Of a stretch of 64,000 nt of DNA, positions 8,501 to 27,137 are shown piece by piece. How positions within the stretch are numbered: position 1 is the first letter of the stretch; each line of letters starts with the position of its first letter. The stretch is taken from contig JAPDJW010000002.1 in the NCBI GenBank assembly GCA_029258885.1, forward strand, positions 64,001-128,000, in the 5' to 3' direction. This DNA comes from Thermoproteota archaeon (GTDB lineage Archaea; Thermoproteota; Thermoprotei; Thermofilales; B9-G17). A program made the translations under genes and the position numbers. The notes below the pieces were generated by a model. It had not been told where the DNA came from, did not search any database, and was given only the letters and a program-made list of their open reading frames with translations.

Positions 8501-9568
8501 CTAGAATTTTACATATATTACGGCCTTATCGGTCTCTATATCCTCTAAGTAACAGCCCCAACCTCCAACAGAGAAACGTCTTCCATCATCTGTCTCGATT
8601 ATCAAGCTATACTTTAAACCATTCTCAGAAATTAATACATCTTTTATTTCACCAGTAATATCCACATGCCTCTTATTAACCACATACCTGCCTACTATTC
8701 TGGCCTTTACATTTACCCCCATACTTAGGAGCTCCTTCACGTCTTCAACCAACCTCCAGAAATGTACATACCTTAAAGGCCTTGAGAATATGCTTTTTTT
8801 ATCAAATGCCTTAAGCTCTGATATATTCCATAGTGCTAGATGATAGAAGTCATTTAATAGCCTGAGGAGATTTTCATCTTCTATTATTAGGGCATAATCC
8901 ATGTTTACCTTAGATTCTGGACTCAGCTCTGGCGGTATAAAGTAGCTGAAACCCTTCTTCCTATCAATTAGTAACACTGTTACTGTAACTATTTTTCTAA
9001 CCTTAACTTTTGAGAAGGCTCTGCTTATGTTAACTAAATATTCAACTAGCTTCGGGTCGGTCTGATATATTACTAGCGATATGTTTACTCCTTTATTTGC
9101 AACTGCTACTATCTTATCCATAACCTTTGATAGAATATAATCGGTGGTTGCTATAGCTAAGCCGTAGGAAGCCTCATTAAATAGGCTACACATCCTTGAA
9201 ATAATGTTCCTTCTCCCCCTAACAGTCCACACAACCCCCGTCGCCTCAGGCTCTCCACTAACTCTTATCTCCTTAATCATTTCTAGAGTCTCCGCTAGCG
9301 TTGTTTCATACTGTTTAATTAGACTTTTTAAGCCTCTATTTGGATCTGTTATTCTATAGACTTTAGGCCTGCTTTCTTGGGATTCTATTAGACCCTTTTC
9401 CTCAAGACCCCTTAATATATCATAGATCTTAGATAATGGTATTCCCGCCTCCTTAGCTATTCTTGATGCCACAGCTGTGCCTAGCCTCGCTAACGCAATA
9501 TATGCTCTTGCTTCAACTTTCTTTAATCCTAGTTTAACCAAATTTTCCTCGATCTTCCTAGTGGTCAT
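8501..9568 (-). CDS. TrmB-family transcriptional regulator with C-terminal sugar-sensing domain
   Basis: N-terminal wHTH LVKLGLKKVEARAYIAL..IAKEAGIPLSKIYDILRGLEEKGLI; C-terminal SVGGWGCYLEDIE typical of full-length TrmB. Confidence 0.9.
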   Translation of the reverse strand: MTTRKIEENLVKLGLKKVEARAYIALARLGTAVASRIAKEAGIPLSKIYDILRGLEEKGLIESQESRPKVYRITDPNRGLKSLIKQYETTLAETLEMIKEIRVSGEPEATGVVWTVRGRRNIISRMCSLFNEASYGLAIATTDYILSKVMDKIVAVANKGVNISLVIYQTDPKLVEYLVNISRAFSKVKVRKIVTVTVLLIDRKKGFSYFIPPELSPESKVNMDYALIIEDENLLRLLNDFYHLALWNISELKAFDKKSIFSRPLRYVHFWRLVEDVKELLSMGVNVKARIVGRYVVNKRHVDITGEIKDVLISENGLKYSLIIETDDGRRFSVGGWGCYLEDIETDKAVIYVKF

Positions 9569-11487
9569 CTCATCGCCCGAAGCCTGTATATAGCATAGAG
9601 CAATACTATGACCAACGTTATTACAGTAATTATGATGTAGCTTAAATAATCTTCTTTATCCTCTTTATGTTCCTCTATAGGAATTATCTTTAAGGGAAAA
9701 CAGTATAGGTTTATCTTAAGTCCGCTTTTCAGCTTGATGCTAAAGGGGCTAAATATCGTGTAGTTCCCTATAATAGCCTTGTTATTCTCCAGCTGACAGG
9801 GAATGGATATATTTACTATACTCTCATTCGATGATATATGCACAGTATTATCTTTAGTTGAGAATGCTATTTTAGTTACGCTATTCTCGGCTTCAACTAC
9901 AATTGTATGATTTAGCGAGTCAAAGAGCTTTAATCCTATAACAATAATATTGTCCTCGGCTACCTTGAAAACCTTGTACTCTATTGACGGTATTATGAGA
10001 ACTGCATCTATAGCTAAGTCTCCTTCTTCTATGCTTATCTTTAGGGTTCCCGAGATATCGTTTGATACATGGAGTTGATGGAGTGGAATAAATCTTAGGC
10101 TACCGCTACTAACATCCCTAACAGTACTTCCTATAGACGGCGCTTCCAGTTTAACTCTTGCGTTGCCCTTAGCAAGGAGAACTATTTCCCATGTTCCTTC
10201 AGTATTCGGCTTAAGGTTAAATGATATATACTTACCTTTCTCGAGATACACGGCTTTTCCTCCACTATATATTTCAGAGAATAGCTTCTTTCCGTTAGTC
10301 TCTAAGTCTTCGGATTCGATAAATAGAGGCTTTACTGAGTATAGATCTCTGCCACGTATAATCGAGCAGCTGACGTTATTCCTATAAATATACAGTAGCG
10401 CATCAAGGGGTACTTCCGTTGCTTCAGCTCCACTATTCCAGTTAATCTCATGTGGTCCACATATTCCATCTCTCACTATCCCCGTTTCCTCGTTGTACAT
10501 TGGCGTATTTGCAGGGTTATTACCCATAAACCAGGAGGCGTAGAGGCCAGCTAGTATCGAGTAGGCCTCGCTCTCCTTGCCCTCGGTAGCATTAGCTAGG
10601 AGGGAGTAGGCTTTACATATAGTTGCTGGGATTATTGGTGGACAACAGAACTGCTTCGGCCTATGCCTCCAGAGGTATGTGCTGTATGTACAGTCATATG
10701 CTATAGCCAGGTGTAGTGGGAATCCCTGGGCAGCGGATTTCGCCGATTCAATGTATCTACTTTCATTTAATGTTACGCCAGCCATGACTAGGGCTTGTAT
10801 CGGTAGGCCTGGAGCATACGTTGCTTTAACTTCAAAGTAGCTCCATGGAGGATACCAGTCGACTGTTGAGTTAACGTATGCTTGTTTAACAACTATCTTA
10901 TCCGCTAGTTTCCGGATTGTTGTTTTAATGCTTTCATCGCCTGAGCCCATATAATAGTATGATAGCCCCATTACAATGTGCGATATTGTAAATAATGCAT
11001 CCGTTCTATCGACGTTATTTAAAGCCTTCATTAGACACTCTTTTATCTCATTGGCGAATGTCTTGTTTACTCTAGAGAACACCAGATAGCCTAGACCAAG
11101 CTCATGTACGGCTCTACCGTACCAGTCCCCCACGCCGGGATCTCTCGGCGTCCAGCGTTTATTGTCCTCTAGGTATAGGTAGAAGTCTCCTCTCTCGGTC
11201 TGCATCTTCATGGTGAATCGGATAGCTCTCTCAGCCATCTTCAATGCCTCGCTGTCATTGAATATTAGGTAGTAGTTTAGGTAGGTTATTCCAGCTCTGG
11301 CTGTATCGTCAAGGTTTACTCTGCCGAGAACTCTGCCGTTAGACCAGAACTCCCACCATCCACCGGATATTGGGTCGTATAGCTCATTTAAATGCGATAA
11401 GTTGATCTTTAGATTACATGGAATAGCGTACACATATTCTAATAGTACTATTAAAAATATTATTATTGTTAATTTTCTCGATGTCAT
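9565..11487 (-). CDS. Secreted, membrane-anchored (alpha/alpha)6-barrel glycosidase-like protein with CBM-like C-terminal domain
   Basis: Signal peptide; NLDDTARA; WFMGNNPANTPMYNEETG..DGI....NWNSGAEAT; IESEDL...YSGGKAV (CBM6/35-like start); C-terminal TM. Confidence 0.65.
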   Translation of the reverse strand: MTSRKLTIIIFLIVLLEYVYAIPCNLKINLSHLNELYDPISGGWWEFWSNGRVLGRVNLDDTARAGITYLNYYLIFNDSEALKMAERAIRFTMKMQTERGDFYLYLEDNKRWTPRDPGVGDWYGRAVHELGLGYLVFSRVNKTFANEIKECLMKALNNVDRTDALFTISHIVMGLSYYYMGSGDESIKTTIRKLADKIVVKQAYVNSTVDWYPPWSYFEVKATYAPGLPIQALVMAGVTLNESRYIESAKSAAQGFPLHLAIAYDCTYSTYLWRHRPKQFCCPPIIPATICKAYSLLANATEGKESEAYSILAGLYASWFMGNNPANTPMYNEETGIVRDGICGPHEINWNSGAEATEVPLDALLYIYRNNVSCSIIRGRDLYSVKPLFIESEDLETNGKKLFSEIYSGGKAVYLEKGKYISFNLKPNTEGTWEIVLLAKGNARVKLEAPSIGSTVRDVSSGSLRFIPLHQLHVSNDISGTLKISIEEGDLAIDAVLIIPSIEYKVFKVAEDNIIVIGLKLFDSLNHTIVVEAENSVTKIAFSTKDNTVHISSNESIVNISIPCQLENNKAIIGNYTIFSPFSIKLKSGLKINLYCFPLKIIPIEEHKEDKEDYLSYIIITVITLVIVLLYAIYRLRAMR

Positions 11488-11489
11488 GG

Positions 11490-13484
11490 CTAGTACGGGA
11501 ATAGGAACTTGTATATTTGTCCTAATCCAAGCACGAAGACTGAGAATATGTATCCTAGGAATAGTCCTGTAGCTAATGGTACTCCGTAGTTCTCATATAC
11601 TTTTGCTCCACCGAACTTTAGTGTTATGTATTTGAACAGCCATGCTATGAAAGCTGAGAAAGCTCCTCCCCATGCTCCGCCGATAGTTCCGAAGAGTAGT
11701 CCTATGCCGCTTATTGGGAACCAGTAGTACCTTATCTTCAGATAGAATATTGCTCCAGATAGCGCTAGTCCTCCGAGGACATGTAGCCACCACGGCTCGT
11801 CTGCTGGATAAGGCGATATCAGTGAAGGATTCGTCCATCTATCGGGCCACCACCATCCATCGACGCTTGACGGTATCTTGCTGTATCCTATGGTGTACCA
11901 GGACCATACAACTAGTGGTATTGCAATAGCTATACTTACGGCAGCTGAGAAGAATAAGTTCTTGAATATTGTAGCTGACTTCATGCCGTGCTCCTCGCCT
12001 AACTTATACGCTAGTAGCGAGTAGTATGTTGGACCATAGCTTATCGAGCTAGCTGATGCACATATTAGACTGTGGGCCATTAATTGTACTGAATAGTAGC
12101 TTGTGTTGAATTTATCCAGTGTATATCCTCGGTAGAGTACGTGGTATGTTAGTGCCTGCAGTGTTCCCCACCATCCTCCGCTGAACGCTACTCCTGCCTC
12201 TGCTAGCTGTCGTGCCATGACAAGATTATGGATTATTACCGCTATGAAGAGCCAGCATGCTTCAACAATGTGTGCGCCACTTATAACCATTAGAACCACT
12301 AGTACTAGGAAGGAAGCTGTAAGTAGTGTGTAGCTGAAACTATATCCTACCTCTCCTTCCCTTAGCTCCCTAATTGGCGTGCTTTTGATAGCCTTCTTTA
12401 TGGTATTTAGGTACCATTTCCAGTTTAATAGTACTGGCCATATGAAGACTCCTATGAATAGTCCTACGCCTGCAAATGCGTGGATTTTCAGTGGATCCGT
12501 TCTGCCTATTAGGTCGTATCTAGCTATGCTGTCCGCTAGCGCCGGCATGTTCGGGTAATATCCGAGAGTGTATGCTATCTGTGGGATTAGGATGAGGAAT
12601 ATTAGCCATGAAATCCACGCCGTAAACAGTACATCCAAGGGCACTAGGTAGTAGAAGGCTACGGTAACGGGTGAAGTTTCTATCGAAAACACGCCAGCAT
12701 AGTTCTGTTTGATAACAGGAGAGAATACTACTAGATCCAGCATTGTAGGCATACCGTATCTGAATGGAGGCCTATTCCATCCATAGATGTTTGGAAAGCC
12801 CGGCACTAGTAGATGTAGGATCCACGGCAGGTAGATGAGGAAGCCTACAGCTATTCCTGTGTGGAATAGCCAGGAAGCCGATTTCTTCTCTCCCGTTGTG
12901 TAGCTTACTACTGTATCTATTACCACCGCGTGGGGATATGCTAGCATCTCTATCTTATTCCATCTCTCCTTAACTATGCTTGCGAGCGCTATTGCCATGG
13001 TAACCGATGATAGGAGGAATATATACCAGAAGGCTATGGGTTTAATCCATTCACTCCATGGTACTGGAGCTCCGCCAGCTAGTGCTGGCTGTAGGACTGA
13101 CGGAGATGGAGCCCAGATGCTGGGCAGATACTCATTGTATATTGCTGGCTGGAGCAGCCTAGCGCCCATGAACTGGTTCATGAAAACCCATGGCATGAAG
13201 TAGCTTGAGAATGCGAATGGAATTATTATGAGTGTGGCTAAGAAGAACAGTGCCTCCCCGCTAACGTATTCTCTTAGCCATGGACCAAGCAGTACAAGTA
13301 GATAGAATATTCCCAATATCAGTAGTGTTCCTTCCACCGGTCCTAGGTGGAAGCCGAAGAGAAGGCCTATGTAGGCCACCTGATAGGACATTAGTATAGT
13401 TATCGCAATTATTATCAGTAGAGTATATATATACCATTTGGCTCTAGCCACGCTTCTCACCCCTAACCCTCCTCCTGTAGACAT
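11490..13484 (-). CDS. Polytopic membrane protein, DUF6785/DUF6784-like (OPT-related putative transporter); probable start GTG at 13451
   Basis: Many TM helices; W..PI..W, ERWNKIEMLAYP, RYYWFPISGIG motifs; GGTGA RBS before the GTG at 13451. Confidence 0.7.
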   Translation of the reverse strand: MSTGGGLGVRSVARAKWYIYTLLIIIAITILMSYQVAYIGLLFGFHLGPVEGTLLILGIFYLLVLLGPWLREYVSGEALFFLATLIIIPFAFSSYFMPWVFMNQFMGARLLQPAIYNEYLPSIWAPSPSVLQPALAGGAPVPWSEWIKPIAFWYIFLLSSVTMAIALASIVKERWNKIEMLAYPHAVVIDTVVSYTTGEKKSASWLFHTGIAVGFLIYLPWILHLLVPGFPNIYGWNRPPFRYGMPTMLDLVVFSPVIKQNYAGVFSIETSPVTVAFYYLVPLDVLFTAWISWLIFLILIPQIAYTLGYYPNMPALADSIARYDLIGRTDPLKIHAFAGVGLFIGVFIWPVLLNWKWYLNTIKKAIKSTPIRELREGEVGYSFSYTLLTASFLVLVVLMVISGAHIVEACWLFIAVIIHNLVMARQLAEAGVAFSGGWWGTLQALTYHVLYRGYTLDKFNTSYYSVQLMAHSLICASASSISYGPTYYSLLAYKLGEEHGMKSATIFKNLFFSAAVSIAIAIPLVVWSWYTIGYSKIPSSVDGWWWPDRWTNPSLISPYPADEPWWLHVLGGLALSGAIFYLKIRYYWFPISGIGLLFGTIGGAWGGAFSAFIAWLFKYITLKFGGAKVYENYGVPLATGLFLGYIFSVFVLGLGQIYKFLFPY

Positions 13485-15006
13485 GGCCCCTACCTGAAAT
13501 ATATCCTAGGATAAAGAGAATTATCGACACTATTACTAGGAGTATTCTAGTTCTATAGTTGACCATTTCGACTACCTCTATCTTTGACTTAAGCTCAGTT
13601 ATTCTTCTAGTAAGGTTCTCGATCTGTAGTTCCAGCTCGGTAATTGCCTTCTGAAGCTCGAATATCTCCTTCATCTGAGCCAGCTCACCCGGTAGTTCCT
13701 CTATTACCATGGCCTGCTCTATGCTTACAGTAGGCTCAGCTATGTAGTACTCCTTATATATTCTTTTAACGTGGTTCACCGGATCATCTGTTATGCTCTC
13801 ATCAAAGGGTATTAGTAACGATTTGAAGGGGAAGCTCATGGCTGTATAAACGTTATGTATGCCTTCATCGATAAACGACCAGGTAATCGCGTCTAAGCCT
13901 TCAAGAGTATACGTGAAGCCGAAACCTTTCTTCAAATCCTTATTGTATGCAACATACCATCCCTCCTTTATCTCAGAGACTGGCACTGATACGTCGGATG
14001 TTCTATCAAACTCTCCAGCTTCTCCGATAACAACCGTATAGTATTTTCCTCCCTTACCTACTCCGCTCCACTCCCTATTTGCTAGGTTTACATGAAGAAA
14101 AGTTCCTGGCTTAGCATTTTCTCCAGTTATATCAAGTATAGCATATATCCACGTATGATTTACGTATAGTATGTAAGTGAAAACAGCGTATATTTCCGTT
14201 AAATTATGATAACTAGATTCAAGCTTAAGTTTAATTATGCCCCTAACAGGCCCCTCTTTTATAAAAACTAGTTCTCCTGCTCCATCATATGCATTAGGAT
14301 TATTCTCTATCCAACCCGGATCGGCTGGACAGAAAAATCTGCTCCACTTCCACAGCAGGCTCATGAACTCCGAATCCTGCTTTATCACATCATAGCCAGT
14401 CTTAGTTAAGTTTATAGAGAATATAGAGCCGGACATCCACGCAGCCTTTACTGCTATAACGTATTCAACCAGTCCATTGGACATAGTGTAGGCTTCCTGC
14501 ATGAACTCTGGTGAACCTTCTTTTATGCTCTGTAAATATTCATATTCATCTATTCTCACAGCCAAGGGGTACGTAACCTCTGGCAACCCTGCGCCCTTTA
14601 ATGCTATGAAGATACTGTATTCATCAGTCTCACCACTAGCTATCCTACTTACAGTTAAAAACGCTAGCTCATCCTCCGGAGTAATACCTTCTTCATTATC
14701 TATATCATCTACTTGCGATGGAATTACCTTCTCGCCATGCAATACGGCTAGGGCTTTCCAGTCAACATCATCGGCAGAATCAAGCGTATTAGTACCAAAT
14801 ACATCAACATTCTCAGGTAGTGCTGCAGCTATATCTCTTATCCTAATGACTATAGGATAATTAACTGGAATATCAGTGCCTGGGGGAGCTCTAATCTTAA
14901 CTTTAATTAGATAATAAGTCGGTAAAGGTTGAGAAAGAACGTATGGGGAAGGTAGGAGGTAAAGGATAGCAACAAAAATGATAAAAAAATAAATAGGGTT
15001 TTTCAA
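13444..15006 (-). CDS. Secreted surface protein: DUF4861-like/supersandwich head, coiled-coil stalk, C-terminal TM
   Basis: Signal peptide; VIPSQVDDIDNEEGITPEDELAF; EGPVRGII; heptad stretch ITELELQIENLTRRITELKSKIE; TM plus basic tail. Confidence 0.7.
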   Translation of the reverse strand: MKNPIYFFIIFVAILYLLPSPYVLSQPLPTYYLIKVKIRAPPGTDIPVNYPIVIRIRDIAAALPENVDVFGTNTLDSADDVDWKALAVLHGEKVIPSQVDDIDNEEGITPEDELAFLTVSRIASGETDEYSIFIALKGAGLPEVTYPLAVRIDEYEYLQSIKEGSPEFMQEAYTMSNGLVEYVIAVKAAWMSGSIFSINLTKTGYDVIKQDSEFMSLLWKWSRFFCPADPGWIENNPNAYDGAGELVFIKEGPVRGIIKLKLESSYHNLTEIYAVFTYILYVNHTWIYAILDITGENAKPGTFLHVNLANREWSGVGKGGKYYTVVIGEAGEFDRTSDVSVPVSEIKEGWYVAYNKDLKKGFGFTYTLEGLDAITWSFIDEGIHNVYTAMSFPFKSLLIPFDESITDDPVNHVKRIYKEYYIAEPTVSIEQAMVIEELPGELAQMKEIFELQKAITELELQIENLTRRITELKSKIEVVEMVNYRTRILLVIVSIILFILGYISGRGHVYRRRVRGEKRG

Positions 15007-15022
15007 TTGTACCCACCTCTAC

Positions 15023-16570
15023 TTACTTCTTTTTCTTAGCTACTATAAATCCTATTATTAGACCTATTATTAATCCAACTATTAACATTACATACTGCAT
15101 CGACTGAGCCGTGCCTAGCTGTGATTTAAGTGAGTCTATTTCGGATTGAAGCGATGAAATCTGATCCTGTAAGCTTGATATCTGAGCATTTGCCTGATCA
15201 AGCTGTCCCTGAAGAGTCGAGATCTGTGCTTCTAAGGAGCTTATCTGCTCATTTAGACTACTTATAGTCTCCTCCTTCTCCTTAATCGCGCTTTCATACG
15301 CAGTTATTATATTGGCAGGTACTAGACCAGCTTTCTCCTCTCCAACAACCTTAATTGTTGGCTTGTTAATGCAAATTCTATAAATATTCGACATTAAAGC
15401 TAGGAAATCATCAGTTATAGTACTATCGAATAGTACTAACACTCTATAGAATGGTACTGGTATACCATCCTCAAAGTGTAGCACAAGCTCAGCTCCTGGA
15501 GATCCCCAGTCAAAGGTTAGTAGCTTTTCTGCTGGATAAAATATTACTCCAAATCCCTTACCCTCAGCCTTCTTATATACTGCAAACCAGTATTCGGTAA
15601 AGTTCTCAAGCCTTAGCCCTTTACCTTCCATTCTGGACAATTCTCCAGTTCCAGGTACGTAAACTGTGTCGTGTTCAATGCCCTGATCTCCCATATCGAC
15701 AAAGCTTGCTTTAACTGGTATTTTAGTGCCTGGTGTATAGCCTGGACCTGTTACTGTTAATTCTAATTCTATATATGACTGGCCCTTATATACTGCATAC
15801 TTCTTCACCGCATATGCTCCATCTACACTACCATGAGGCTCGGTTGACTTCAAAACAACCACAGCTCTAACAGGTCCCTCTGATATGTATAGCACGTTGA
15901 AATCTGGGTTTTTCTCAGCCCATCCGGGGTCTCCCTCAGCACAATACCTAGACCATCTCCATCCAACGTTATCCACACCCTCCCTGCCCTGCTTAACTAC
16001 ATCGTATCCAGAAGCCTTAATATATGCCGAAAATATAGTGCCAGCAATCCAGTCACTCTCATTAAGTATGATAGCTGAAATTAAATCATTTGAGAGAATT
16101 AATGCTGGACCTAATTCTTCAACGCCTTGATATGGACTTTCTATTGTTACAGTACATACTTTCTCAGCGGGTGGCGGAAGGGATTCACCTTCCCTTGCTA
16201 CAAGTATCTTATAGGTATCGCTACCTCCCGCAGGTATACCCGCGACCAGCTCAAAGACTATTTCATAGTCATTTACGCTCTCGCCTATTTTATCAAGCTG
16301 AGCTGGGACAACGTCATTCCCGTGAACTACATAAATGTTATCCCAACTATATGATCCTGTTAGCTGAGGAAGTATGTCTCCAACTTTTATAACCACTGGA
16401 GTGCCAGCAGGCATATCGGTAGTTGCAGTTACTTCAACAACTATATAGTATAGATCTGGAGATGCAGTTACGTTAAATGGTACTAATAATGTTGCTAGTA
16501 GAAGCAATCCGAGAATACATTTGAGGGGTTTATTCATATTTTTACCACCATCGATAGGTATAAATCTCAT
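15023..16570 (-). CDS. Paralog of 13444..15006 (secreted head, coiled-coil stalk, TM); start may be 16537
   Basis: VVPAQLD..EIVFE, W.WSRY, EGPVRAVV, KGFG shared with neighbour; heptads ISSLNEQISSLEAQISTLQGQL; GGTGG RBS before M12. Confidence 0.75.
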   Translation of the reverse strand: MRFIPIDGGKNMNKPLKCILGLLLLATLLVPFNVTASPDLYYIVVEVTATTDMPAGTPVVIKVGDILPQLTGSYSWDNIYVVHGNDVVPAQLDKIGESVNDYEIVFELVAGIPAGGSDTYKILVAREGESLPPPAEKVCTVTIESPYQGVEELGPALILSNDLISAIILNESDWIAGTIFSAYIKASGYDVVKQGREGVDNVGWRWSRYCAEGDPGWAEKNPDFNVLYISEGPVRAVVVLKSTEPHGSVDGAYAVKKYAVYKGQSYIELELTVTGPGYTPGTKIPVKASFVDMGDQGIEHDTVYVPGTGELSRMEGKGLRLENFTEYWFAVYKKAEGKGFGVIFYPAEKLLTFDWGSPGAELVLHFEDGIPVPFYRVLVLFDSTITDDFLALMSNIYRICINKPTIKVVGEEKAGLVPANIITAYESAIKEKEETISSLNEQISSLEAQISTLQGQLDQANAQISSLQDQISSLQSEIDSLKSQLGTAQSMQYVMLIVGLIIGLIIGFIVAKKKK

Positions 16571-16590
16571 TAATACTATTTTCTTTAGAG

Positions 16591-16620
16591 TATATAAATC
16601 TTCACAAAAAGCTTTTATAA
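16591..16620. promoter_or_regulatory. Back-to-back divergent archaeal promoters
   Basis: Minus-strand TATA TTTATATA at 16591-16598; plus-strand BRE CAAAAAGC + TATA TTTTATAA at 16613-16620; spacings fit the genes on both sides. Confidence 0.5.
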
Positions 16621-16647
16621 TCCAGCAGGTGTTTTATTATAGTAAAG

Positions 16648-16971
16648 GTGAATTATATGAAATCAACTTCTATTATTGTCCTAGTAATGTTGATTACAGT
16701 AATTTTCCTGACTCAGGCGGCGTTTCATGCTCTTCCTAATGGTGGATTAACAGCTAAACTTAATGAGCTTAAAAAAATTTACCAACAAAAGTTGGTTGAG
16801 TATGAACAGCTAAAGAAGCTACACGATGAATTATCTGAGAAGCTTAGCTCGTTAGAAGGAGAGCTATTCCTATTGAGAAATGGAATATTAGTTGCTGGAG
16901 GCATTCTCTTCATCGTCGGATTTATAGTAGGTATGTATCATGAGAAGAAGCGGCCTTCAGGCTCCCGTTAA
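16648..16971 (+). CDS. Small membrane protein: hydrophobic N-terminus, coiled coil, C-terminal TM; probable start ATG 16657
   Basis: Heptads LNELKKIYQQKLVEYEQLKKLHDELSEKLSSLE; TM ILVAGGILFIVGFIVG; the GTG at 16648 lies inside the AAAGGTGA RBS. Confidence 0.7.
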   Translation: MNYMKSTSIIVLVMLITVIFLTQAAFHALPNGGLTAKLNELKKIYQQKLVEYEQLKKLHDELSEKLSSLEGELFLLRNGILVAGGILFIVGFIVGMYHEKKRPSGSR

Positions 16972-18839: not shown

Positions 18840-21800
18840 ACCTCTTCACACCTCTTCTCACATATTCATCTTTAAGATTTGGCTTAAGGGATCTCCAGAT
18901 TAGGAACTGCTTCCTAATTTCCCGGAAGAATGCAGAGTTAGAAGATATCCAGGGCAAATCCGGCCCACTTTCCCTAACGACAAGTGCCTCAAAGACGTAT
19001 ACCTTACCGATCCTTCTTGCAATTAGGTTGAAGTCCTGAATTATCCCCTGATCAAAGGGTGCCAGCCTCATCCTTACCGACATTATCTTTACATCCTCCT
19101 TAGCAGTTGATCTAACGCTGTAGTTAAAGCCTCCATCTATGTAGAATAGGCCTACCCTCTCTATTGAGTGAGCTTCCAAGTACTCCCTAATGAACTCGAA
19201 GACCCCACACGCCTCCCTCTCGGTGGATCTGAATGGCAGCGGCAGTGACCACATGTTCCCAGTTGGTTTCGTCGTTATCTTCCATTTCCTTTCAAGTGAT
19301 GGCGTAACCAATTTCGCAGCCTTTACAGCTGGATAAACGGTTGATAAGAGGGAGAAAGCCATTGCAACGCTGGTAATTATGAGTATAGCTAGTGACGCAT
19401 AATTTGGATAAAAGCCGGCCGGATAGAGTCCCAGTTGCCATAGTGTCCATGAACCTATTACACCTGCAATATATCCTAATATTCCTCCAATGGCTGCATG
19501 AATCAATGATTCAGCTAGGAATAAACCCAAGACATGTAGTGGCGCTAGACCTATGGCGCTATATATCTTTATCTCCCTAACCCTCTCATAGACAGAGCCG
19601 AGCATAGTAATGAGAATTGTAAATGACGCTATAGTTAGTGGAACTACTATTCCTTGGGCTCCACCTATACTGTAGTATATTCTAGGCGATATCCTGTATA
19701 TTCTACCCATTATTTCGTCAGGCTTATCCTTATATCCCACGTACGCGTCCACCATTAACCGTTTGGAGAAAGCTACAGCTATATCGAGGATATCTTCACG
19801 TGAAAGCTGTCCCTTTAATTCTAGGCTTATGGCGTTTGGCTCCTGATAGAACATAATTTGAGCAAGCTTATATGGTATTATTAACACTTCATCGCCCGTT
19901 AATCTTCTCCCCATAGCTCCCTCGGATAATTGCCGTGGATCAATAGGCGTTATTGGCATGCCGTCTAGGTCTGTTACTCCCTCAGTTCCCGTCCATAGAA
20001 TATCGCCACTATATATCGCCACAATCTTTAGATGTACACCCCATATTTCAATCGTGGATCCCAGATCCACTGCTTTGCCAGTATATTTCTGTATCAATTC
20101 GGCGGTCTTTTCGCTTATTGCACATACGAATACTTGATCCTCGGTAAACCATTCTCCTCTTTCAATAATTTTATCTATGCCTAAGGCTCTTCCACCCTCG
20201 GGCGATACCGCTAATAGGGCTTTTATTGGTACGCTAGGCGATACATTCCATAAATATAGTATTTGGACGCTCTTCGGGTATATCCACGTTCTAACGCCTA
20301 CTGCAAATGAATCCCTGTAGTTTATCGAGAACTCATATACGAACTCATACGGTATTGGCCTCAATATCATCCATGGTGCTCTTTCAACAAGTATTCCTGT
20401 ATAGGGCGTAATGCCGTCGGAGCTTTTAATTGATAATGTTACCGCCGAGGAGATGGAAGTGAATGCCGTGAGCGAGAACATAGTTATTACGACTGAAGTT
20501 ATGGTTAGGAATGTTCTAAGCCTCCTTTTACGCATATTCTGTACGCCTATCGAGAGAGCTGACATGAATGCCCCTAGCCTCTCGATTTCGGCGTAGTGCT
20601 TTCCTATGAGTATTTCCCTTATCCTCTTCATGTGCGAGTACGTCTCCCCTATAGATAATACGAGCAATATTAACAGGAATATGGTTAAGGCTGTAGCTAC
20701 CGCTAGTATGAAAACGTTAGTTGCAACGTGTACGCCGGGATGGAATATTGCCAATATGAAAGCTGTAATTATGTAGATTAGGATGAAGTATATCAGCCGT
20801 TTAACCCCGTATGACATGAAGATTAGCCTCTCCATACCCATCGAGAACGGTATGGCTAGGAACATGAAGAACAGTATTGATAGTATTATCTCGTTTATCT
20901 GATCCATGGCGGATGAATACGTAGCCCTAGAGAAAGCCCAGAGGGGTATCGATAAAGTATAAACCTTCAGCATATCCTCTTTCTTCAGCGCCTCATCTAC
21001 GAGCTCCCTATATTTAACCATAAGGCCGTAGTATTCGAAGAGTCTAGCTGTCACTGCTCCCTTCTCTACTAGAATCTTTGCCCTAGATATTGCTATGTGG
21101 TAGAGGTCTCGTGAGAAGTTTATGGGTGAAAGAATTATACATTCTCCCCTCTTCAGCGTGTAGCCGTATCCTTGAGGATGCTTATCGGATGAGTTTATCA
21201 GAATTATAAGCGGATATACTTCATCCGTCCTCACTATTACCTCTGAGGGCATATTTGGCTCTATGAAAGCCATGATATCCTGTATCGCTGTTGGTATGGA
21301 TTTCGCCGTAATCTGCGGCTGTGTAAACAGCACATCCCTATGGATCAGAGGCGTATGGGAGAAGAAGTTTAGGACTTCTATGCTCCTAATGTTTATCTGA
21401 AGAGATTGCGGGTTTATGGGTTGTAGTATAGCTATTGATGCCGCCTCAAATACTGGGACTATCTTATACGCATTCGCCACCGTGAGGCTTATCTCCCTCG
21501 ATAGGCCGTAGACTCCCGTATCTGTAGCGCATATTATGGCATTATATTCCTCGTTAAAGGTATACGCTTGAACGTCAACTGTAGAGAACGGCTTTAAGCC
21601 CTTTAGCGTGAATATTCCGTTTTCATCAGGTATTGCTACTATGGTGAATCCGTTTGCCGCCCACTTGGGGTTCGGTGGATTATTATAAGCCCTGATAAAG
21701 AACACTGTATTAGGAAGACTTACATTATCATACCATGCAGTTGTAATGTTGTATTTTGCAAGTTGTATTGTTAATGTTACGTAGCCCCAGTCACTATATA

Positions 21801-23244
21801 ACTCCGCTGGATTTAGTACATAGGGTATCTCCATGTTAACGTATTCGTATAGCGCTATCCAGAGGTACTTTGCTTGAGGCTCCACGTTTTCCCACTTAAT
21901 TCTCTCATATGTATCCAGTATTGTACATTGAACAATCCTTAGAGCATTAGTTGTTACGAAGCTTAATCCTCCTCCAAAGCAGGCTGAAGTAAACGGCTCC
22001 GACTCCAAATATAGAAGTGGGGGATCCATCGGCAATGTAAGCTTTATCCAGGGCGGATAGGAATTTAATACCATATCAACTACGTGAAAATCCTCATTGA
22101 AGATGGATTTAGCTTCGTCAAGCCATGAACCGAAGAAGGTATCCATAATCCACGTATACTTCTGGTTTATTAGGGAGTCAGGGCTTACATAGCCGTATCC
22201 AAGCCCAAACACGTAGAGTCCAAGCACATCGCTATCGCTAGCCAAGTCTATGCTTAGAAAGCCCTTTATGAATACACCTAGCTTCCTGAAGTATCTACTC
22301 ACGAACTCCCTAGATCCCCATAGACCTTGATAGTGACCAGACAGGGCAACAAGCCAGACTGTTCTCTTAGGTCTATACTTGTTGAGTACTCTTGCATACT
22401 CCAGTAGGAAAGCTATTCCCAGTGCGTCGGTTGCACCGGGAGCTTTACCTAGCACATGGGAGAATGAATCGTAGTGTGCGGCTAGTACAATTATTTCACC
22501 CCTTTTAACCGGATCACTTCCCTTTATTACAGCTATTATATTGGGTACGGCTATCTTCCTCCATACGACTCTAACATTAACTCTAATTCTAACTTCGTTA
22601 CCTGTGGAAAGAAGGTTTTTCAGCATTTCTCCACTACTTGAATTAATTAGGAGACGTGGGAAGGCTACGGGTATGCTCAGGCTCTTAAGGAAGCCCTCCA
22701 TGTAGCTCGTAGTTTTAGGCTCAATGAATATTACTCCCTTTGCACCAAGCATCAGATATACCTTCCATTCCCACCCGGTATTGAACTTCGTTAATACAAA
22801 CTTGCCTCTAACGCTGGTATTTCCCAGCTCATCCAGCCTTTTAATATAGACTATACCGTCGCCCTCGGCTGGGCTTGTGTACGACGATGGATTTACATGG
22901 TTTGGATACAGCGGGTAGGCTATTATATTATATATGTGTCCGCCGTGAAGTACTTCAATGTAGGAATACTCTACTATGGGAACCGTTATGTTATAGTAAT
23001 CAAGCCTTACGTCAGCACCGTACTTTCTAAAGATTTTCTTAATATACTCCGCTGCCTTAAAGAATCCGCTATAGCCTGTCATTCTGGTGTTAAGTGATGA
23101 AAGATACTTTACGTGTTCTTTAATTTTATTAAGATTTAGGAGACTCGCCACGTCTTCAAGAGAAGCCTCGGCGTATACATGGTTTAGGCTATAGAGACTT
23201 GCAGCCAATATTGTTAGGATAAATAATGCCAAAACTTTCCTCAA
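18829..23244 (-). CDS. Fusion: signal peptide, PA/M28 peptidase-like ectodomain, FtsX/MacB-type ABC permease domains
   Basis: VLAAHYDS..APGATD (M28 fold); NMRKRRLRTFLTITSV (MacB TM1); GSVYERVREIKIYSAIGL..LFLAES (FtsX signature). Confidence 0.85.
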   Translation of the reverse strand: MRKVLALFILTILAASLYSLNHVYAEASLEDVASLLNLNKIKEHVKYLSSLNTRMTGYSGFFKAAEYIKKIFRKYGADVRLDYYNITVPIVEYSYIEVLHGGHIYNIIAYPLYPNHVNPSSYTSPAEGDGIVYIKRLDELGNTSVRGKFVLTKFNTGWEWKVYLMLGAKGVIFIEPKTTSYMEGFLKSLSIPVAFPRLLINSSSGEMLKNLLSTGNEVRIRVNVRVVWRKIAVPNIIAVIKGSDPVKRGEIIVLAAHYDSFSHVLGKAPGATDALGIAFLLEYARVLNKYRPKRTVWLVALSGHYQGLWGSREFVSRYFRKLGVFIKGFLSIDLASDSDVLGLYVFGLGYGYVSPDSLINQKYTWIMDTFFGSWLDEAKSIFNEDFHVVDMVLNSYPPWIKLTLPMDPPLLYLESEPFTSACFGGGLSFVTTNALRIVQCTILDTYERIKWENVEPQAKYLWIALYEYVNMEIPYVLNPAELYSDWGYVTLTIQLAKYNITTAWYDNVSLPNTVFFIRAYNNPPNPKWAANGFTIVAIPDENGIFTLKGLKPFSTVDVQAYTFNEEYNAIICATDTGVYGLSREISLTVANAYKIVPVFEAASIAILQPINPQSLQINIRSIEVLNFFSHTPLIHRDVLFTQPQITAKSIPTAIQDIMAFIEPNMPSEVIVRTDEVYPLIILINSSDKHPQGYGYTLKRGECIILSPINFSRDLYHIAISRAKILVEKGAVTARLFEYYGLMVKYRELVDEALKKEDMLKVYTLSIPLWAFSRATYSSAMDQINEIILSILFFMFLAIPFSMGMERLIFMSYGVKRLIYFILIYIITAFILAIFHPGVHVATNVFILAVATALTIFLLILLVLSIGETYSHMKRIREILIGKHYAEIERLGAFMSALSIGVQNMRKRRLRTFLTITSVVITMFSLTAFTSISSAVTLSIKSSDGITPYTGILVERAPWMILRPIPYEFVYEFSINYRDSFAVGVRTWIYPKSVQILYLWNVSPSVPIKALLAVSPEGGRALGIDKIIERGEWFTEDQVFVCAISEKTAELIQKYTGKAVDLGSTIEIWGVHLKIVAIYSGDILWTGTEGVTDLDGMPITPIDPRQLSEGAMGRRLTGDEVLIIPYKLAQIMFYQEPNAISLELKGQLSREDILDIAVAFSKRLMVDAYVGYKDKPDEIMGRIYRISPRIYYSIGGAQGIVVPLTIASFTILITMLGSVYERVREIKIYSAIGLAPLHVLGLFLAESLIHAAIGGILGYIAGVIGSWTLWQLGLYPAGFYPNYASLAILIITSVAMAFSLLSTVYPAVKAAKLVTPSLERKWKITTKPTGNMWSLPLPFRSTEREACGVFEFIREYLEAHSIERVGLFYIDGGFNYSVRSTAKEDVKIMSVRMRLAPFDQGIIQDFNLIARRIGKVYVFEALVVRESGPDLPWISSNSAFFREIRKQFLIWRSLKPNLKDEYVRRGVKRFEQ

Positions 23245-25838
23245 GGTTTATCATCTCTTTTTAATATTTTAATCATTTCTATGAATAAAATAGTAATTGG
23301 TATAATTATTAGAGCCCCCAAGGTAATAAGGGGCATAAAACTAGGTCTCTCAGGTTGTTTTACTTCCTCCTTAACAGTATAGAGGATGATTGAGATTATG
23401 CCGTCTTCCGACTTAATGTATACGAGGTAGTAGCCTCTCGTCAAGGGCTTATATTTAACCTCATTGACCCCGGCTGTTATATTGATTTTAATTGAGCTAA
23501 TGAAGCCAGTTACTACCTCAACTATCTTTAACTCCGCCTTCCCAATATTGGTGTTTGATGACACCTTGATGGCTATGGTATTGTTTTTAGGCTGAAAGGC
23601 TATCTTGACATCGCTTCTCAGTCGAAACATCTTGCTCGGGATAACCAAGTATAGAATCCCTGTGGAGTTTGATACCTTAACTTCGAAGCCCTCGGCTAAG
23701 TCTACGTCCTTAACCTGGGACTTCCTAAAGACGTCGTAAACTGTATACTCCGTGTCTTTCAAATCGCTTAGATTCAGAAAGACGCTGTACTCCTTATTTG
23801 CTAGGTTGGTTAGTGCCTTAATTATGTATATTTCGCCGTCCCTTAACGTTCCTACCTGAAGCCCAGCGAACTCCATAATGCCATATGGTGGAAGCCTTAC
23901 GGTATTGTAGTGGTAGATGCGGTTCAATGTAGCGAGAACTATCGGCTCACCCGCTCCATAGATTTCCTGCCCTATAATTCCGTTCTTCCTAAATCCAAAC
24001 CTTAAATCTTCAATAGGTATCGTATAGTTCCTTACAATGACGCCTATATTCGGCTTCTTCTCAATAGTCTCGGGTGGCAGGAATTCAGGCAACGTATACT
24101 TTGCCACAGTATTTGAGTATTTAAAGAACTCATTAAGTAGGCTCTTTAAGTAGTCGGGCAGTTTATCTCCCACAAGCAAATAGTATTCTTTAAGCCACAG
24201 AACACTCTCATACAGCTCCTTAGCAGCTATGTAATCAACAATTCCACAGCATGGAAGTATTCCAAAGAATGTAATCCATCTATCTTCAAGCTGCCATATT
24301 GAAGCCCTCCACATGAGGTTTGCAATCATATAGTAGCTCAATTTAAGATACCTCTCTTTGCCCGTGTAGAGATATGCCTTAGCGGCAGCCACTGCAGACA
24401 TAGCTGTGATATGTGCTTCGTAGAATACCTCTAATGGAAAATCCATTAACCTATCTAAGGCTTTTAACGCCTCATTTAGGTAGGTGCTATTTCCACTTAA
24501 CTCATATGCTAGAAACATTACGTAGGAGTAAGCTCCAGCCACGTCCAGTTCCTGACCACCTGGTATCGGTTCCAGGGTATACCTGTTAAAGAACACCGGA
24601 AAAGTATAGTTTATTTTCCTTGCAAACTCTATTAAATTATCTATGCTATTGAAGAACGTTAAGTACGCATTCTGCGATCCCATAAATGCTAACTTTGCAA
24701 GCTTAGCCATGTGTCCAACTATGTACCATGAATCCTCCTTAACGCCGGGTGGATACGAGTTTGAAATCATACCCTTTGAATAGAATAGAGGTATGAGTCT
24801 GTCTAAATGGTCGTCAATCCATGATACATTACCTAAATAGGATTCATAGAGCCTTATAGCATAGCAGAGCTCTAAAACTGTTATTAGTTCTGAAGCCACA
24901 CGTGGATCTTCTACATAAGCTCTTGGAAAAATTTCCCCTCTCAAATTTACCCAACACTCGTTTTTACCTAAATCCAGCAACGCCTTCTTAGCGTAGTTAT
25001 CCCAGTTAATCTCCTCATACTTAGGCTTCTTAATTCTCTCATAGAGATTAGCGAGAGATCTTAGGTAAAAGCCTGAGACCTCAAGCTTATTATTGAAGGT
25101 TAGGTTTGGACGAATTAAAACATGATACTTATGTATAGGGATCTCACTCTCAGCTAGCTGTACGCTCTTTTCAGCAACGCACTTAAAGCCGAAGCAGCAG
25201 AAAGATTTCATGTCCCTTTTGCCCTTGTATGCTACGGTATTTTTCCATATGTGATAAGCTCCCTGCTTGAGTAGAATTTTGGAATAATATATATCCTCCA
25301 GATAAGCTACTCCCAGGGATAAGGGGGGTATATATATGCATATGTAGGGCGTCCCCATGCCAAGCTGCGGGAATATTACATTATATTCAAGCTCACCCTC
25401 ACATATTACATAGGCGTCTGGATAGATGTTCAGCTTTACACTCTTAGAAGACTTACTACTAACATAAATTGCTGAATCTATCAGGAGACTATCATTAACC
25501 AATGTAATATTAATTATCACATGATATATTACTTCGTCGACCTCGGATGATAAGTCTATTTTAATGCTGTTATTAAAACAATTATAACGGAAATTCCGTA
25601 TATGTTCCTCGCTCAAAACCGGCCTATTGTATCCTGTGGTTATACCATTTAAAACTACAACGTAATCCTCATTCCCATACCTAATAACTATACCTTTATT
25701 CTCCTTAAAATCAAATTCAATATGATAATTTCCAAGAGTTAGCTTGTTGGCAGAGATCATGAAATCCACCAAGCTAAATATTAGGAGGAGGATTATTGAA
25801 AAAGTAATTATCTCATTAAATATATCAAGCAATTCCAT
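23241..25838 (-). CDS. Secreted, membrane-anchored six-hairpin (alpha/alpha)6 glycosidase-like protein
   Basis: N- and C-terminal hydrophobic helices; helical repeats DSWY, ELDVAGAYSYVMFLAYELSGNSTYLNEA, YLYTGKERYL; QEIYGAG. Confidence 0.6.
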   Translation of the reverse strand: MELLDIFNEIITFSIILLLIFSLVDFMISANKLTLGNYHIEFDFKENKGIVIRYGNEDYVVVLNGITTGYNRPVLSEEHIRNFRYNCFNNSIKIDLSSEVDEVIYHVIINITLVNDSLLIDSAIYVSSKSSKSVKLNIYPDAYVICEGELEYNVIFPQLGMGTPYICIYIPPLSLGVAYLEDIYYSKILLKQGAYHIWKNTVAYKGKRDMKSFCCFGFKCVAEKSVQLAESEIPIHKYHVLIRPNLTFNNKLEVSGFYLRSLANLYERIKKPKYEEINWDNYAKKALLDLGKNECWVNLRGEIFPRAYVEDPRVASELITVLELCYAIRLYESYLGNVSWIDDHLDRLIPLFYSKGMISNSYPPGVKEDSWYIVGHMAKLAKLAFMGSQNAYLTFFNSIDNLIEFARKINYTFPVFFNRYTLEPIPGGQELDVAGAYSYVMFLAYELSGNSTYLNEALKALDRLMDFPLEVFYEAHITAMSAVAAAKAYLYTGKERYLKLSYYMIANLMWRASIWQLEDRWITFFGILPCCGIVDYIAAKELYESVLWLKEYYLLVGDKLPDYLKSLLNEFFKYSNTVAKYTLPEFLPPETIEKKPNIGVIVRNYTIPIEDLRFGFRKNGIIGQEIYGAGEPIVLATLNRIYHYNTVRLPPYGIMEFAGLQVGTLRDGEIYIIKALTNLANKEYSVFLNLSDLKDTEYTVYDVFRKSQVKDVDLAEGFEVKVSNSTGILYLVIPSKMFRLRSDVKIAFQPKNNTIAIKVSSNTNIGKAELKIVEVVTGFISSIKINITAGVNEVKYKPLTRGYYLVYIKSEDGIISIILYTVKEEVKQPERPSFMPLITLGALIIIPITILFIEMIKILKRDDKP

Positions 25839-25842
25839 ACAC

Positions 25843-26733
25843 CTAGAAGAAGTCTGAGATCTCTGCTGTAGCTACGCATACTACTGTATCAGCTGCACCA
25901 TAGTAGACGTATACTTTCTCATCCTTCACTATAGCTCCACAGGTGAATGTTACGTTAGGTACGGCACCTACTTTTTCAAATTCCTCCTCTGGTTCAAGTA
26001 TTGGATCCTTACACCTGTATATTACTCTCCTCGGGTTCCTTAAGTCTAGTATTGCGTAGCCGAGCCTGTAGACATAGTTTTCATCTACTCCATGATATAT
26101 GAAAAGCCAGCCATCCTTCGTTTTAATGGGGGGTGCTCCTGCCCCTACTTTGAGGCTATCCCAAGAATTCTTGCGTGGCATCATAATAATGTTATTGTTG
26201 ATCCATGTCCTCAAGTTCCTGGAGTATGCTATCCAGATATGTGGATGTATCCGGTGGTACATAACGTACATGCCATTATACTTCTCTGGAAGTATTACCG
26301 CATCCTTATTGACTACTTGTGGAAAAGCCATTATCCTCCTTCCCCATCTCCACCTCCTGTTTAGGAAGTCGTCTAGCCTTATCGATGTTATGCCTATCTG
26401 AGGTATTTTACCATCATATGCGGTATAAGTCATGAATATGGTTGATCCAATTCTTGTTAAACGTGGATCCTCGCACCCCCTAGCCTCAGTGCTTAGCTTT
26501 GGCGTAAATATGGGCCTAGGAAGCCTCTCCTTTATAGTGAAGCCATCCTCTGAACACGCATATCCTAATCGTGAAACATTATCCCTTCCCATAGCCCTAT
26601 AAACTATGTGCACTAGACCTCCATCATAGATTGCACCAGCGTTGAAAACCATCTTAGATTCCCAGGAATGATTAGGCACTGGCTTTAAAATTGGATTACC
26701 GGGATATCTCTTTAACTCCATAGAATGTAACAC
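25843..26733 (-). CDS. GH130-family glycosidase/beta-mannoside phosphorylase (cytoplasmic)
   Basis: NPIL.P, VFNAGA, GCEDPRL, NKDAVILPEK, KVGAGAPPIKT..GWL.IYHGV, VPNVTFTCG; no signal peptide. Confidence 0.9.
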   Translation of the reverse strand: MLHSMELKRYPGNPILKPVPNHSWESKMVFNAGAIYDGGLVHIVYRAMGRDNVSRLGYACSEDGFTIKERLPRPIFTPKLSTEARGCEDPRLTRIGSTIFMTYTAYDGKIPQIGITSIRLDDFLNRRWRWGRRIMAFPQVVNKDAVILPEKYNGMYVMYHRIHPHIWIAYSRNLRTWINNNIIMMPRKNSWDSLKVGAGAPPIKTKDGWLFIYHGVDENYVYRLGYAILDLRNPRRVIYRCKDPILEPEEEFEKVGAVPNVTFTCGAIVKDEKVYVYYGAADTVVCVATAEISDFF

Positions 26734-26780: not shown

Positions 26781-27137
26781 AACCACCGATAGATGGTAAA
26801 TAAATGTTAAGATTCTGAAACATATTCGAATCGACAGAATCTATAATCTATATGTTAGTTTAATATTTTTTGATGTTTTTATTGAGTTTTAGGTTGTTTT
26901 GGTATGGATAGTTGTGAAATGGATAAGGCTATTAAAGAGTATGAGTAAAGGTTTTGTAAAACCTTATTTCAGCCCTTAAGCTACATCCAGCTATTTCACC
27001 TTAATTTTTCTAATTTCAGCTTTAAACTCCTCCTTTAAGTGCGTTACTTTTTCCTTAGCTTAGTTAACCTTTTGCTTACCGTCTAAGGTTTTAATCCTAA
27101 CAACTCTTTATTCAATAAATATTAATTTAAGGGTTAA

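Follow-up and report, generated by a model that had tools for sequence, protein, structure and literature searches.

A giant FtsX protein and two OPT-superfamily permeases in a ten-gene archaeal locus: a candidate core for oligosaccharide uptake

The ten genes at positions 8501-26733 of a 64,000-nucleotide stretch of archaeal DNA (contig JAPDJW010000002.1, positions 64,001 to 128,000; here the window) raise the question of how a cell might take up a glycan with a locus that encodes a GH130 enzyme, a TrmB-family regulator and several surface and membrane proteins, and none of the parts of a classical sugar importer. The DNA comes from a hydrothermal-vent metagenome and belongs to a Thermoprotei archaeon with a genome of 2.10 Mb that is 99.9% complete. 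A reading of the sequence alone had proposed a glycan-foraging system built on non-canonical transport parts, and our analysis partly supports this interpretation. We put at roughly 55% the probability that this genome has eight glycan-utilisation loci with different substrate specialisations, the present one among them, in which oligosaccharides would be taken up through an undescribed core of a giant FtsX protein and two divergent OPT-superfamily permeases.

All ten open reading frames (ORFs) lie where the sequence-only reading had placed them, and Pfam confirms its labels TrmB, GH130, DUF6785-like and M28-FtsX. Proteins designated p are named by their length in amino acids (aa).

8501-9568, minus strand: TrmB-family regulator, 355 aa, with a helix-turn-helix (HTH) and a sugar-binding effector domain
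9565-11487, minus strand: p640, surface-anchored, 640 aa, with a signal peptide and a C-terminal transmembrane segment (TM); homology to YPO2471 (PDB 7TEM)
11490-13484, minus strand: polytopic protein with DUF6785 and DUF6784 (Pfam), 664 aa; putative second OPT-superfamily permease
13444-15006, minus strand: stalked surface protein 2, 520 aa; paralog of stalked protein 1 with the same architecture
15023-16570, minus strand: stalked surface protein 1, 515 aa, with a signal peptide, an all-beta head of ~380 aa, a coiled coil and a C-terminal TM
16648-16971, plus strand: 'headless stalk' protein, 107 aa, from the ORF and TM map; divergent gene
16968-18839, minus strand: p623, polytopic, 623 aa; putative OPT-superfamily permease from profile homology
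18829-23244, minus strand: giant FtsX, 1471 aa, with M28, MacB_PCD and FtsX domains (Pfam)
23241-25838, minus strand: p865, surface-anchored, 865 aa, with a TM at both ends and an (alpha/alpha)6-barrel core at aa ~228-640
25843-26733, minus strand: GH130 (Pfam PF04041), 296 aa, cytoplasmic, phosphorylase-like

Read from TrmB towards GH130, the junctions measure -4, +2, -41, +16, +77, -4, -11, -4 and +4 nt, where +77 nt is a divergent promoter gap and the -4 nt that follows it a convergent overlap. The entire arrangement, including the 107-aa gene, is conserved in three contigs from metagenome-assembled genomes (MAGs) of related uncultured Thermoprotei (L001, L020 and L021; loci of other genomes are numbered in the same way below). 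This synteny, together with the eight-fold recurrence described below, rules out a chance adjacency. The proteins of 640, 623, 865 and 107 aa gave no match to Pfam or NCBIfam models. Pfam searches of the ten proteins found no substrate-binding protein (SBP), MalFG-type permease or ATPase, in agreement with the earlier statement that the locus has no classical sugar ABC set, and no SusC (TonB-dependent) or SusD domain. A CUT1 importer set (SBP_bac_1 or SBP_bac_8, two BPD_transp_1 permeases and a MalK-type ATPase) is missing from the locus and occurs elsewhere in the genome.

Eight triads and their sugar genes

The combination of a giant FtsX, a p623-like and a DUF6785-like gene occurs as a complete triad eight times in the source genome and accounts for 67 kb, or 3.2%, of it. 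The neighbours of the triads, named by Pfam annotation, are as follows.

Triad 1 (window locus): GH130, p865, p640, TrmB, two stalked proteins
Triad 2: GH94, Lrp/AsnC regulator, stalk-like protein, anchored 648-aa protein
Triad 3: AnmK, URO-D-like protein, anchored GHL10
Triad 4: anchored PQQ-propeller/Ig protein, C39-like peptidase, GH3
Triad 5: galactokinase (GalK), PfkB kinase, GalT, GalE, melibiase-like (GH36-like) 872-aa protein, second FtsX protein
Triad 6: DUF6259, second FtsX protein, ArsR-type regulator
Triad 7: anchored GH57, PSMA-like GH57, TrmB-like regulator, stalk-like protein
Triad 8: anchored C25-like protein

Next to at least six of the eight triads stand distinct carbohydrate-active or sugar-catabolic genes that occur once in the genome, and two triads have TrmB-family regulators; the sugar link that had been proposed for the transport core is thus supported within this genome. 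By phmmer, the families of the triad-side sugar enzymes have no further members in the genome, and each enzyme is found within 0-5 kb of a triad. Genome-wide Pfam searches gave one GH1, two GH57 and no GH5 or GH13. Because the enzymes near the triads are single-copy and few glycoside hydrolases are found elsewhere, the small repertoire of carbohydrate-active enzymes (CAZymes) appears to be concentrated at the triads. These loci mix anchored extracellular proteins, with a signal peptide and a C-terminal TM, with cytoplasmic phosphorylases and kinases, which can act only on imported sugars. The eight copies are tied to distinct pathways, for beta-mannosides, cellobiose-type sugars, alpha-galactosides with Leloir enzymes, alpha-glucans and amino sugars; they amount to a natural experiment in which an orphan but widespread membrane system gains specific, testable substrate predictions.

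The same neighbours bear on the direction of transport. All characterised type VII ABC systems, the group in which we place the giant FtsX below, act outward, and the core could in principle export or assemble envelope material such as surface glycoconjugates or anchored proteins, in the manner of MacB and LolCDE, with the sugar genes as mere neighbours. Many of the neighbours are C-terminally anchored surface proteins, and glycosyltransferases flank the triad in L003. However, the neighbours are catabolic (phosphorylases, kinases and Leloir enzymes) rather than biosynthetic, the OPT superfamily is made up of importers, and substrate specialisation would account for eight copies that differ in their catabolic sets. 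We consider export very unlikely on these grounds, and would read the triad loci as working inward.

The regulator places the triads in a similar context. TrmB-family regulators are sugar-responsive, and the protein encoded in the window matches both PF01978 (77 bits) and PF11495 (153 bits), so that the N-terminal HTH and the C-terminal effector-binding domain are both present; its scores for all NCBIfam TrmB equivalogs are far below the cut-off. Two further full-length TrmB paralogs in the genome adjoin canonical importers, each with SBP_bac_1, two BPD_transp_1 permeases and an ATPase. At triads 1 and 7, then, the triad fills the slot that is held elsewhere by a sugar importer beside TrmB. 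Similar imperfect palindromes lie at 16543-16560 and 26793-26810 (TACCACCATCGATAGGTA and ACCACCGATAGATGGT), near the starts of both transcription blocks of the window locus; by eye they share a palindrome-like ACCACC...GGT element and are putative regulator sites.

The GH130 protein, the only one of the genome, matches PF04041 with 229 bits against a cut-off of 26 and has neither a TM nor a signal peptide. Its nearest relatives are beta-1,2-mannobiose and beta-1,2-oligomannan phosphorylases (PDB 9fj8 and 7fip, E about 1e-82, full length), and it scores 326 bits with the NCBIfam model for beta-1,2-mannobiose phosphorylase, under the equivalog cut-off of 450. As a cytoplasmic, phosphorylase-like enzyme it needs an imported substrate. 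The claim that GH130 would process beta-mannosides inside the cell therefore stands as to family and location, but the similarity points to beta-1,2-mannosides as the predicted substrate direction, not to mannan or N-glycans. The orthologous loci L001 and L021 encode a much more divergent GH130. A phosphoglucomutase/phosphomannomutase-type gene adjoins the p865-like and GH130 genes in L021 (995-2353, minus strand), which fits the use of mannose-1-phosphate from phosphorolysis.

The membrane core and its probable, unlinked partner genes

The largest protein of the core carries Pfam matches to Peptidase_M28 (54 bits) and FtsX (PF02687, 44 bits, aa 1201-1311), and a match to MacB_PCD (PF12704; 24.8 bits, E 3e-5, aa 911-1080) slightly under the 27-bit cut-off. 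We derived its layout from a hydrophobicity map and the positions of the Pfam domains. The N-terminal part comprises an anchor, an ectodomain of ~750 aa with the M28-like domain, three TMs and a cytoplasmic linker; the C-terminal part is a MacB-type module, in which a first TM (913-931) is followed by a periplasmic core domain and three further TMs (1198-1216, 1238-1256 and 1285-1303), and ends in a cytoplasmic tail of ~165 aa. This four-TM FtsX module with an extracytoplasmic domain between TM1 and TM2 is the feature of type VII ABC proteins (MacB/FtsX superfamily). Type VII ABC systems transmit ATP-driven movement to extracytoplasmic domains and do not conduct substrate. The FtsX domain that had been noted earlier is thus confirmed, but a role as import channel does not suit a MacB-type protein of this force-transmitting class. 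A word-based search with the giant FtsX gave only 12 relatives.

The M28-like domain matches profile positions 1-98 of 193 only. Its His and Asp ligands are retained in part, and the Glu-Glu pair is intact in none of 19 aligned family members, most of which have Gly-His instead. This loss of the catalytic pair rules out an active M28 peptidase, and the domain probably serves as a head that binds or transmits force.

The two polytopic proteins of the locus are related to one another and to the OPT superfamily. In hhalign, the p623 family profile and a protein annotated with PF03169 align over their whole length (E 2e-87), and p623 has about 14-16 hydrophobic segments in the TM map. The Pfam OPT model (PF03169) is over its cut-off on four of the eight p623 paralogs and on one DUF6785 paralog of the genome; neither p623 nor the DUF6785 protein of the window matches it over threshold. 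The 'OPT-like' label that p623 had been given therefore holds for a divergent relative recognised by profile, but not at the Pfam threshold of the protein itself. The DUF6785 protein (DUF6785 98 bits, DUF6784 31 bits) is linked to the p623 family (hhalign probability 99.9%, E 9e-32) and to an OPT protein (E 3.5e-17), and a leave-one-out profile matches all p623 paralogs. The p623 family profile gave no match among PDB sequences. These comparisons support p623 and the DUF6785 protein as divergent OPT-superfamily members and distant paralogs, at the level of the superfamily and not of family membership. Because the two would be distant paralogs, the locus would encode two OPT-fold permeases. In the full-text literature that we searched, DUF6785 and DUF6784 are named in no paper.

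The locus lacks an ATPase, and its bacterial counterparts suggest where one may be found. In Desulfobacterota, Armatimonadota and the Planctomycetes-Verrucomicrobia-Chlamydiae (PVC) phyla, and in some archaea, an operon holds a small FtsX (~210 aa), an ATPase, the giant FtsX, DUF6785 and p623. The source genome has exactly one orthologous pair of small FtsX and ABC ATPase (G000:C2:376287-377675, with the ATPase at C2:376287-377009), which lies on another contig among housekeeping genes. Identity with the counterparts inside the bacterial operons is 65-66% for the ATPase and 30-45% for the small FtsX. As these partner genes are encoded elsewhere in the genome, the giant FtsX system is probably not ATPase-less, and the pair is likely to be a motor shared by all eight triads. 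In the simplest arrangement, a variable giant FtsX would join the common small FtsX and two copies of the ATPase in a heteromer like LolCDE.

When the membrane module of the giant FtsX was co-folded with the small FtsX, the score was 0.35, against 0.00 for the best control, with at least 66% contact agreement between runs and a partner pLDDT (predicted local distance difference test) of at least 69. Of 80 solved complexes, 58 reach the mark that this score passes, as do 2 of 110 mismatched pairs; at scores of 0.60 or less there are only 7 of the 80 complexes, and both mismatches. The model lends weak support to the pairing, and because LolC/LolE-like complexes have already been solved the pass may reflect likeness only.

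A motor of this kind need not take part in transport. In an FtsEX-like arrangement, ATP would switch the surface hydrolases or stalked proteins, and the OPT-like proteins would import the products alone with the proton gradient. FtsEX-EnvC, FtsEX-PcsB and FtsEX-CwlO are precedents for the control of extracellular hydrolases by type VII systems, and most triads have genes for anchored hydrolase-like proteins next to them. The giant FtsX is, however, linked to the two OPT-like genes far more constantly than to any hydrolase family, and many loci of other genomes consist of a triad without a recognisable surface enzyme, so that we regard a role confined to switching as quite unlikely. Since type VII ABC systems do not conduct substrate and OPT proteins import, we favour a hybrid machine of motor and permease.

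A second family of large FtsX proteins, of 950-1350 aa and without M28, is also encoded in the source genome (G000:C2:99812-102685, C4:94913-97876, C1:266426-269827, C2:159914-163969 and C3:29551-32688). Two of these genes directly adjoin triads 5 and 6, and one is found ~3 kb from the only GH1 of the genome; similar genes adjoin triads in L005, L008, L022 and L030.

Surface proteins and the wider distribution of the core

The core of p865 (~410 aa) has 317 homologs in a representative library, some with type IX secretion system (T9SS) sorting tails. AlphaFold2 models it as an (alpha/alpha)6 barrel (pLDDT 93.7), for which Foldseek retrieved GH76 mannanases, AGE-type isomerases/epimerases, GH88 and PDB 7TEM, with TM-scores of 0.5-0.65 and identities of 10-14%. 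Conserved acidic residues are seen in the family, and a family member adjoins a GH130 in L001 and L021 too. We regard p865 as a candidate extracellular glycan-active enzyme of an unclassified family. The N-terminal helical domain of p640 matches 7tem_A (YPO2471) by phmmer with E 1.1e-8; as 7TEM was itself retrieved by the barrel model of p865, p640 probably belongs to the same (alpha/alpha)6 fold class. Atlas leads for p640 are the C5-epimerase C-terminal domain and GH76, and orthologs are present in L001 and L020. No Pfam or NCBIfam family of six-hairpin (alpha/alpha)6 glycosidases matches either protein. The earlier 'glycosidase-like' labels of the two proteins are thus supported at the level of the fold (for p640 by way of 7TEM), and both proteins are surface-anchored.

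Stalked proteins 1 and 2 are paralogs (31% identity, E 4e-55); in each, a signal peptide is combined with a SlaB-like coiled coil and a TM at the C-terminus. The head of stalked protein 1 is modelled as all-beta (pLDDT 85.6); Foldseek relates it to the beta-sandwich parts of PL26 rhamnogalacturonan lyase and GH38 mannosidases (TM-scores 0.45-0.54), and the atlas leads are PcRGLX domains and DUF4861. Word-based homolog searches with this head, as with p640, returned close relatives only. Both proteins are stalked, as had been described, and anchored, and their role as binders is supported at the level of the fold. Stalk-like relatives adjoin triads 2 and 7. The 107-aa protein has an N-terminal hydrophobic segment, a coiled coil and a C-terminal TM in the TM map, and its gene keeps an identical position in L001, L020 and L021 (59-65 bits).

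Three further features of the window lie outside the locus. At 6484-8391 on the minus strand, 109 nt downstream of TrmB and on the same strand, a gene encodes a protein of 635 aa in which a beta-propeller (DUF5122) and an InlB-B-repeat-like domain are combined with a signal peptide and a C-terminal TM. This protein shares the anchoring style of the surface proteins of the locus and is not conserved in L020 or L021. Directly upstream of the GH130 block, a 168-aa fragment (27355-27861, minus strand) has weak matches to IS66/IS240-type DDE transposases. A canonical ABC importer with a BPD_transp_1 permease and an ATPase, unrelated to the locus, stands at the left edge of the window (518-1743, minus strand).

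We searched for the distribution of p623 with a five-row alignment, which gave at least 80 loci. Relatives are found in Thermoproteales/Thermofilaceae-type and Bathyarchaeia MAGs, Armatimonadota, Abditibacteriaceae, many Desulfobacterota, Verrucomicrobiota, Kiritimatiellae and Planctomycetota, a range that includes the Thermofilum-like archaea, Planctomycetota and Armatimonadota named in the sequence-only reading and is wider. Among 40 relatives of the same order the copy number of the module runs from 0 to 10, and about 25 of the 41 relatives covered hold triads. It is missing from seven of the eight genomes of one genus with mostly closed genomes, and this absence may explain how the module escaped study. 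In L051, L052, L055 and L082 (Candidatus Thermosaccharophagus and other Armatimonadota) a p623-like gene has no giant FtsX within 10 kb and belongs to a conserved block that also contains an ABC ATPase gene and a number of unnamed ones, which may be a different architecture.

Sugar-related neighbours occur in other genomes as well: GH2 (L042), two NamZ (L046), an AXE1-like esterase (L098), sulfatases with RbsD/FucU (L006), and UxuA or xylose-isomerase-like barrels. L099 has an SBP_bac_5 neighbour. A Pfam tally of 136 neighbours of other archaeal loci gave 193 families, too heterogeneous for an enrichment test, with AP_endonuc_2, UxuA, NamZ, sulfatase, GH5, DUF362 and methyltransferases as leads. 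In the relatives G001, G005 and G026 few neighbours match the accessory genes of the source genome, and accessory sets differ between genomes. The association of homologous cores with CAZymes is therefore strong in the source genome and those closest to it, whereas the neighbours in other lineages are mixed and the module as such has no universal link of this kind.

Several observations weigh against a system devoted to glycan uptake. Outside the source genome, peptidases, PqqD or housekeeping genes are neighbours as often as CAZymes: S58 and TldD/PmbA peptidases in L036, M1 peptidases in L005 and L050, a PqqD-like gene in Desulfobacterota operons and in L006, glycosyltransferases in L003 and plain housekeeping genes in L002. 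Within the source genome a C25-like protease stands at triad 8 and a C39-like one at triad 4. The (alpha/alpha)6 and beta-sandwich assignments are by fold only, with TM-scores of 0.45-0.65 and identities of ~10-14%. To our knowledge, OPT proteins carry peptides or metal chelates and not sugars, and we know of no type VII ABC system that imports. The PqqD-like gene, of the peptide-recognition type, lies inside or just after the five-gene operon (L072:13586-13981 and L006:18168-18539); its conservation hints at a peptide link in Desulfobacterota and their relatives.

The peptidase neighbours of L036, L005, L050 and triads 4 and 8 would be expected of a generic platform for scavenging oligomers, with peptides or muropeptides as the ancestral cargo, in which the sugar enzymes would act on fragments of glycopeptides or of the cell wall, with transport of the peptide portion left to the OPT-like proteins. 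Characterised members of the OPT family transport oligopeptides, the ectodomain is M28/PA-like, and AnmK, NamZ and GHL10 neighbours point to cell-wall sugars. Such a platform accounts poorly for triads 1, 2, 5 and 7, which have sugar enzymes only (disaccharide phosphorylases, the Leloir set and GH57), for the absence of the M28 catalytic Glu-Glu, and for the sugar-responsive TrmB regulators. We consider it unlikely for this genome, where a specialisation on glycans remains our preferred interpretation.

Under the glycan-utilisation interpretation the proteins would act together as follows. A TrmB-type regulator would control the two transcription blocks. Outside the cell, a beta-mannoside would be bound and cut down by the anchored (alpha/alpha)6 proteins of 865 and 640 aa together with the two stalked binders and their beta-sandwich heads. 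The giant FtsX would pair with the small FtsX and the ABC ATPase (G000:C2:376287-377675) in a LolCDE-like type VII ABC motor, whose M28-like ectodomain, devoid of the catalytic Glu-Glu, would transmit ATP-driven movement outside the membrane, and p623 and the DUF6785 protein, with their putative OPT fold, would form the path for the oligosaccharide. GH130 would then phosphorolyse the beta-mannoside in the cytoplasm. Motor and permease would thus divide the work between them. We tentatively propose, at somewhat less than even odds, that this is a new class of carbohydrate importer, in which a MacB-type motor with a pseudo-peptidase head loads oligosaccharides into an OPT-fold pair, and eight copies share one unit of ATPase and small FtsX.

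Should this be true, the system would be an archaeal counterpart of the polysaccharide utilisation loci (PULs) and would give a first cargo class to a module found in Thermoproteota, Bathyarchaeia, Desulfobacterota, Armatimonadota and the PVC phyla. Confirmation would extend the OPT superfamily and the type VII ABC systems to sugar import and make the unclassified surface (alpha/alpha)6 enzymes candidates for new CAZyme families. The results suggest that some archaea forage for glycans without sole reliance on binding-protein-dependent ABC importers. We found no description of the giant-FtsX and twin-OPT module by keyword in the literature searched; new here are the eight-copy picture with distinct sugar sets, the trans-encoded motor pair, the accessory folds and the comparison of TrmB-linked triads with TrmB-linked ABC importers.

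Comparison with known systems

The SusC/SusD PULs of Bacteroidota and the PULs of Gram-positive bacteria resemble the triad loci in being paralogous loci with a conserved uptake core, each with substrate-specific surface enzymes and binders, intracellular enzymes and a regulator. They differ in that the locus described here has no SusC/SusD and no homologous parts, and its host is an archaeon without an outer membrane; its core consists of an FtsX protein and two OPT-like proteins, and the regulators of triad loci are of the TrmB or Lrp type. The TrmB-regulated CUT1 importers of Thermococcales share the position of TrmB beside sugar uptake, and the source genome has two such canonical sets, whereas the locus has no SBP or MalFG-type permease. 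For GH130, the beta-1,2-mannobiose and beta-1,2-oligomannan phosphorylases (7FIP and 9FJ8) are close counterparts, cytoplasmic and importer-dependent, from which the protein of the locus differs in falling short of the equivalog cut-off.

Type VII ABC systems (MacB, LolCDE, FtsEX, HrtBA and BceAB) have the same four-TM FtsX module; the putative ATPase partner of the giant FtsX would be a separate protein as it is in them, and LolC/LolE offer a parallel for the likely heteromer of two different FtsX proteins. The giant FtsX adds to this plan the ~750-aa M28/PA-like ectodomain without Glu-Glu, three TMs and the cytoplasmic tail. In contrast to these systems, it is constantly paired with two putative OPT-fold permeases in a catabolic, import-type gene context, and its archaeal partner genes are unlinked and apparently common to eight paralogs. 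The twin permeases resemble OPT/Yellow-Stripe-like transporters (PF03169, TC 2.A.67) in their profile homology and their ~14-16 hydrophobic segments, but are very divergent, are always paired with a MacB-type protein and stand in a context that suggests sugars. Finally, the multitask ATPases MsmK and MsiK of Gram-positive bacteria likewise serve several importers with one ATPase, while the shared unit that we propose here would be a MacB-type ATPase together with a small FtsX.

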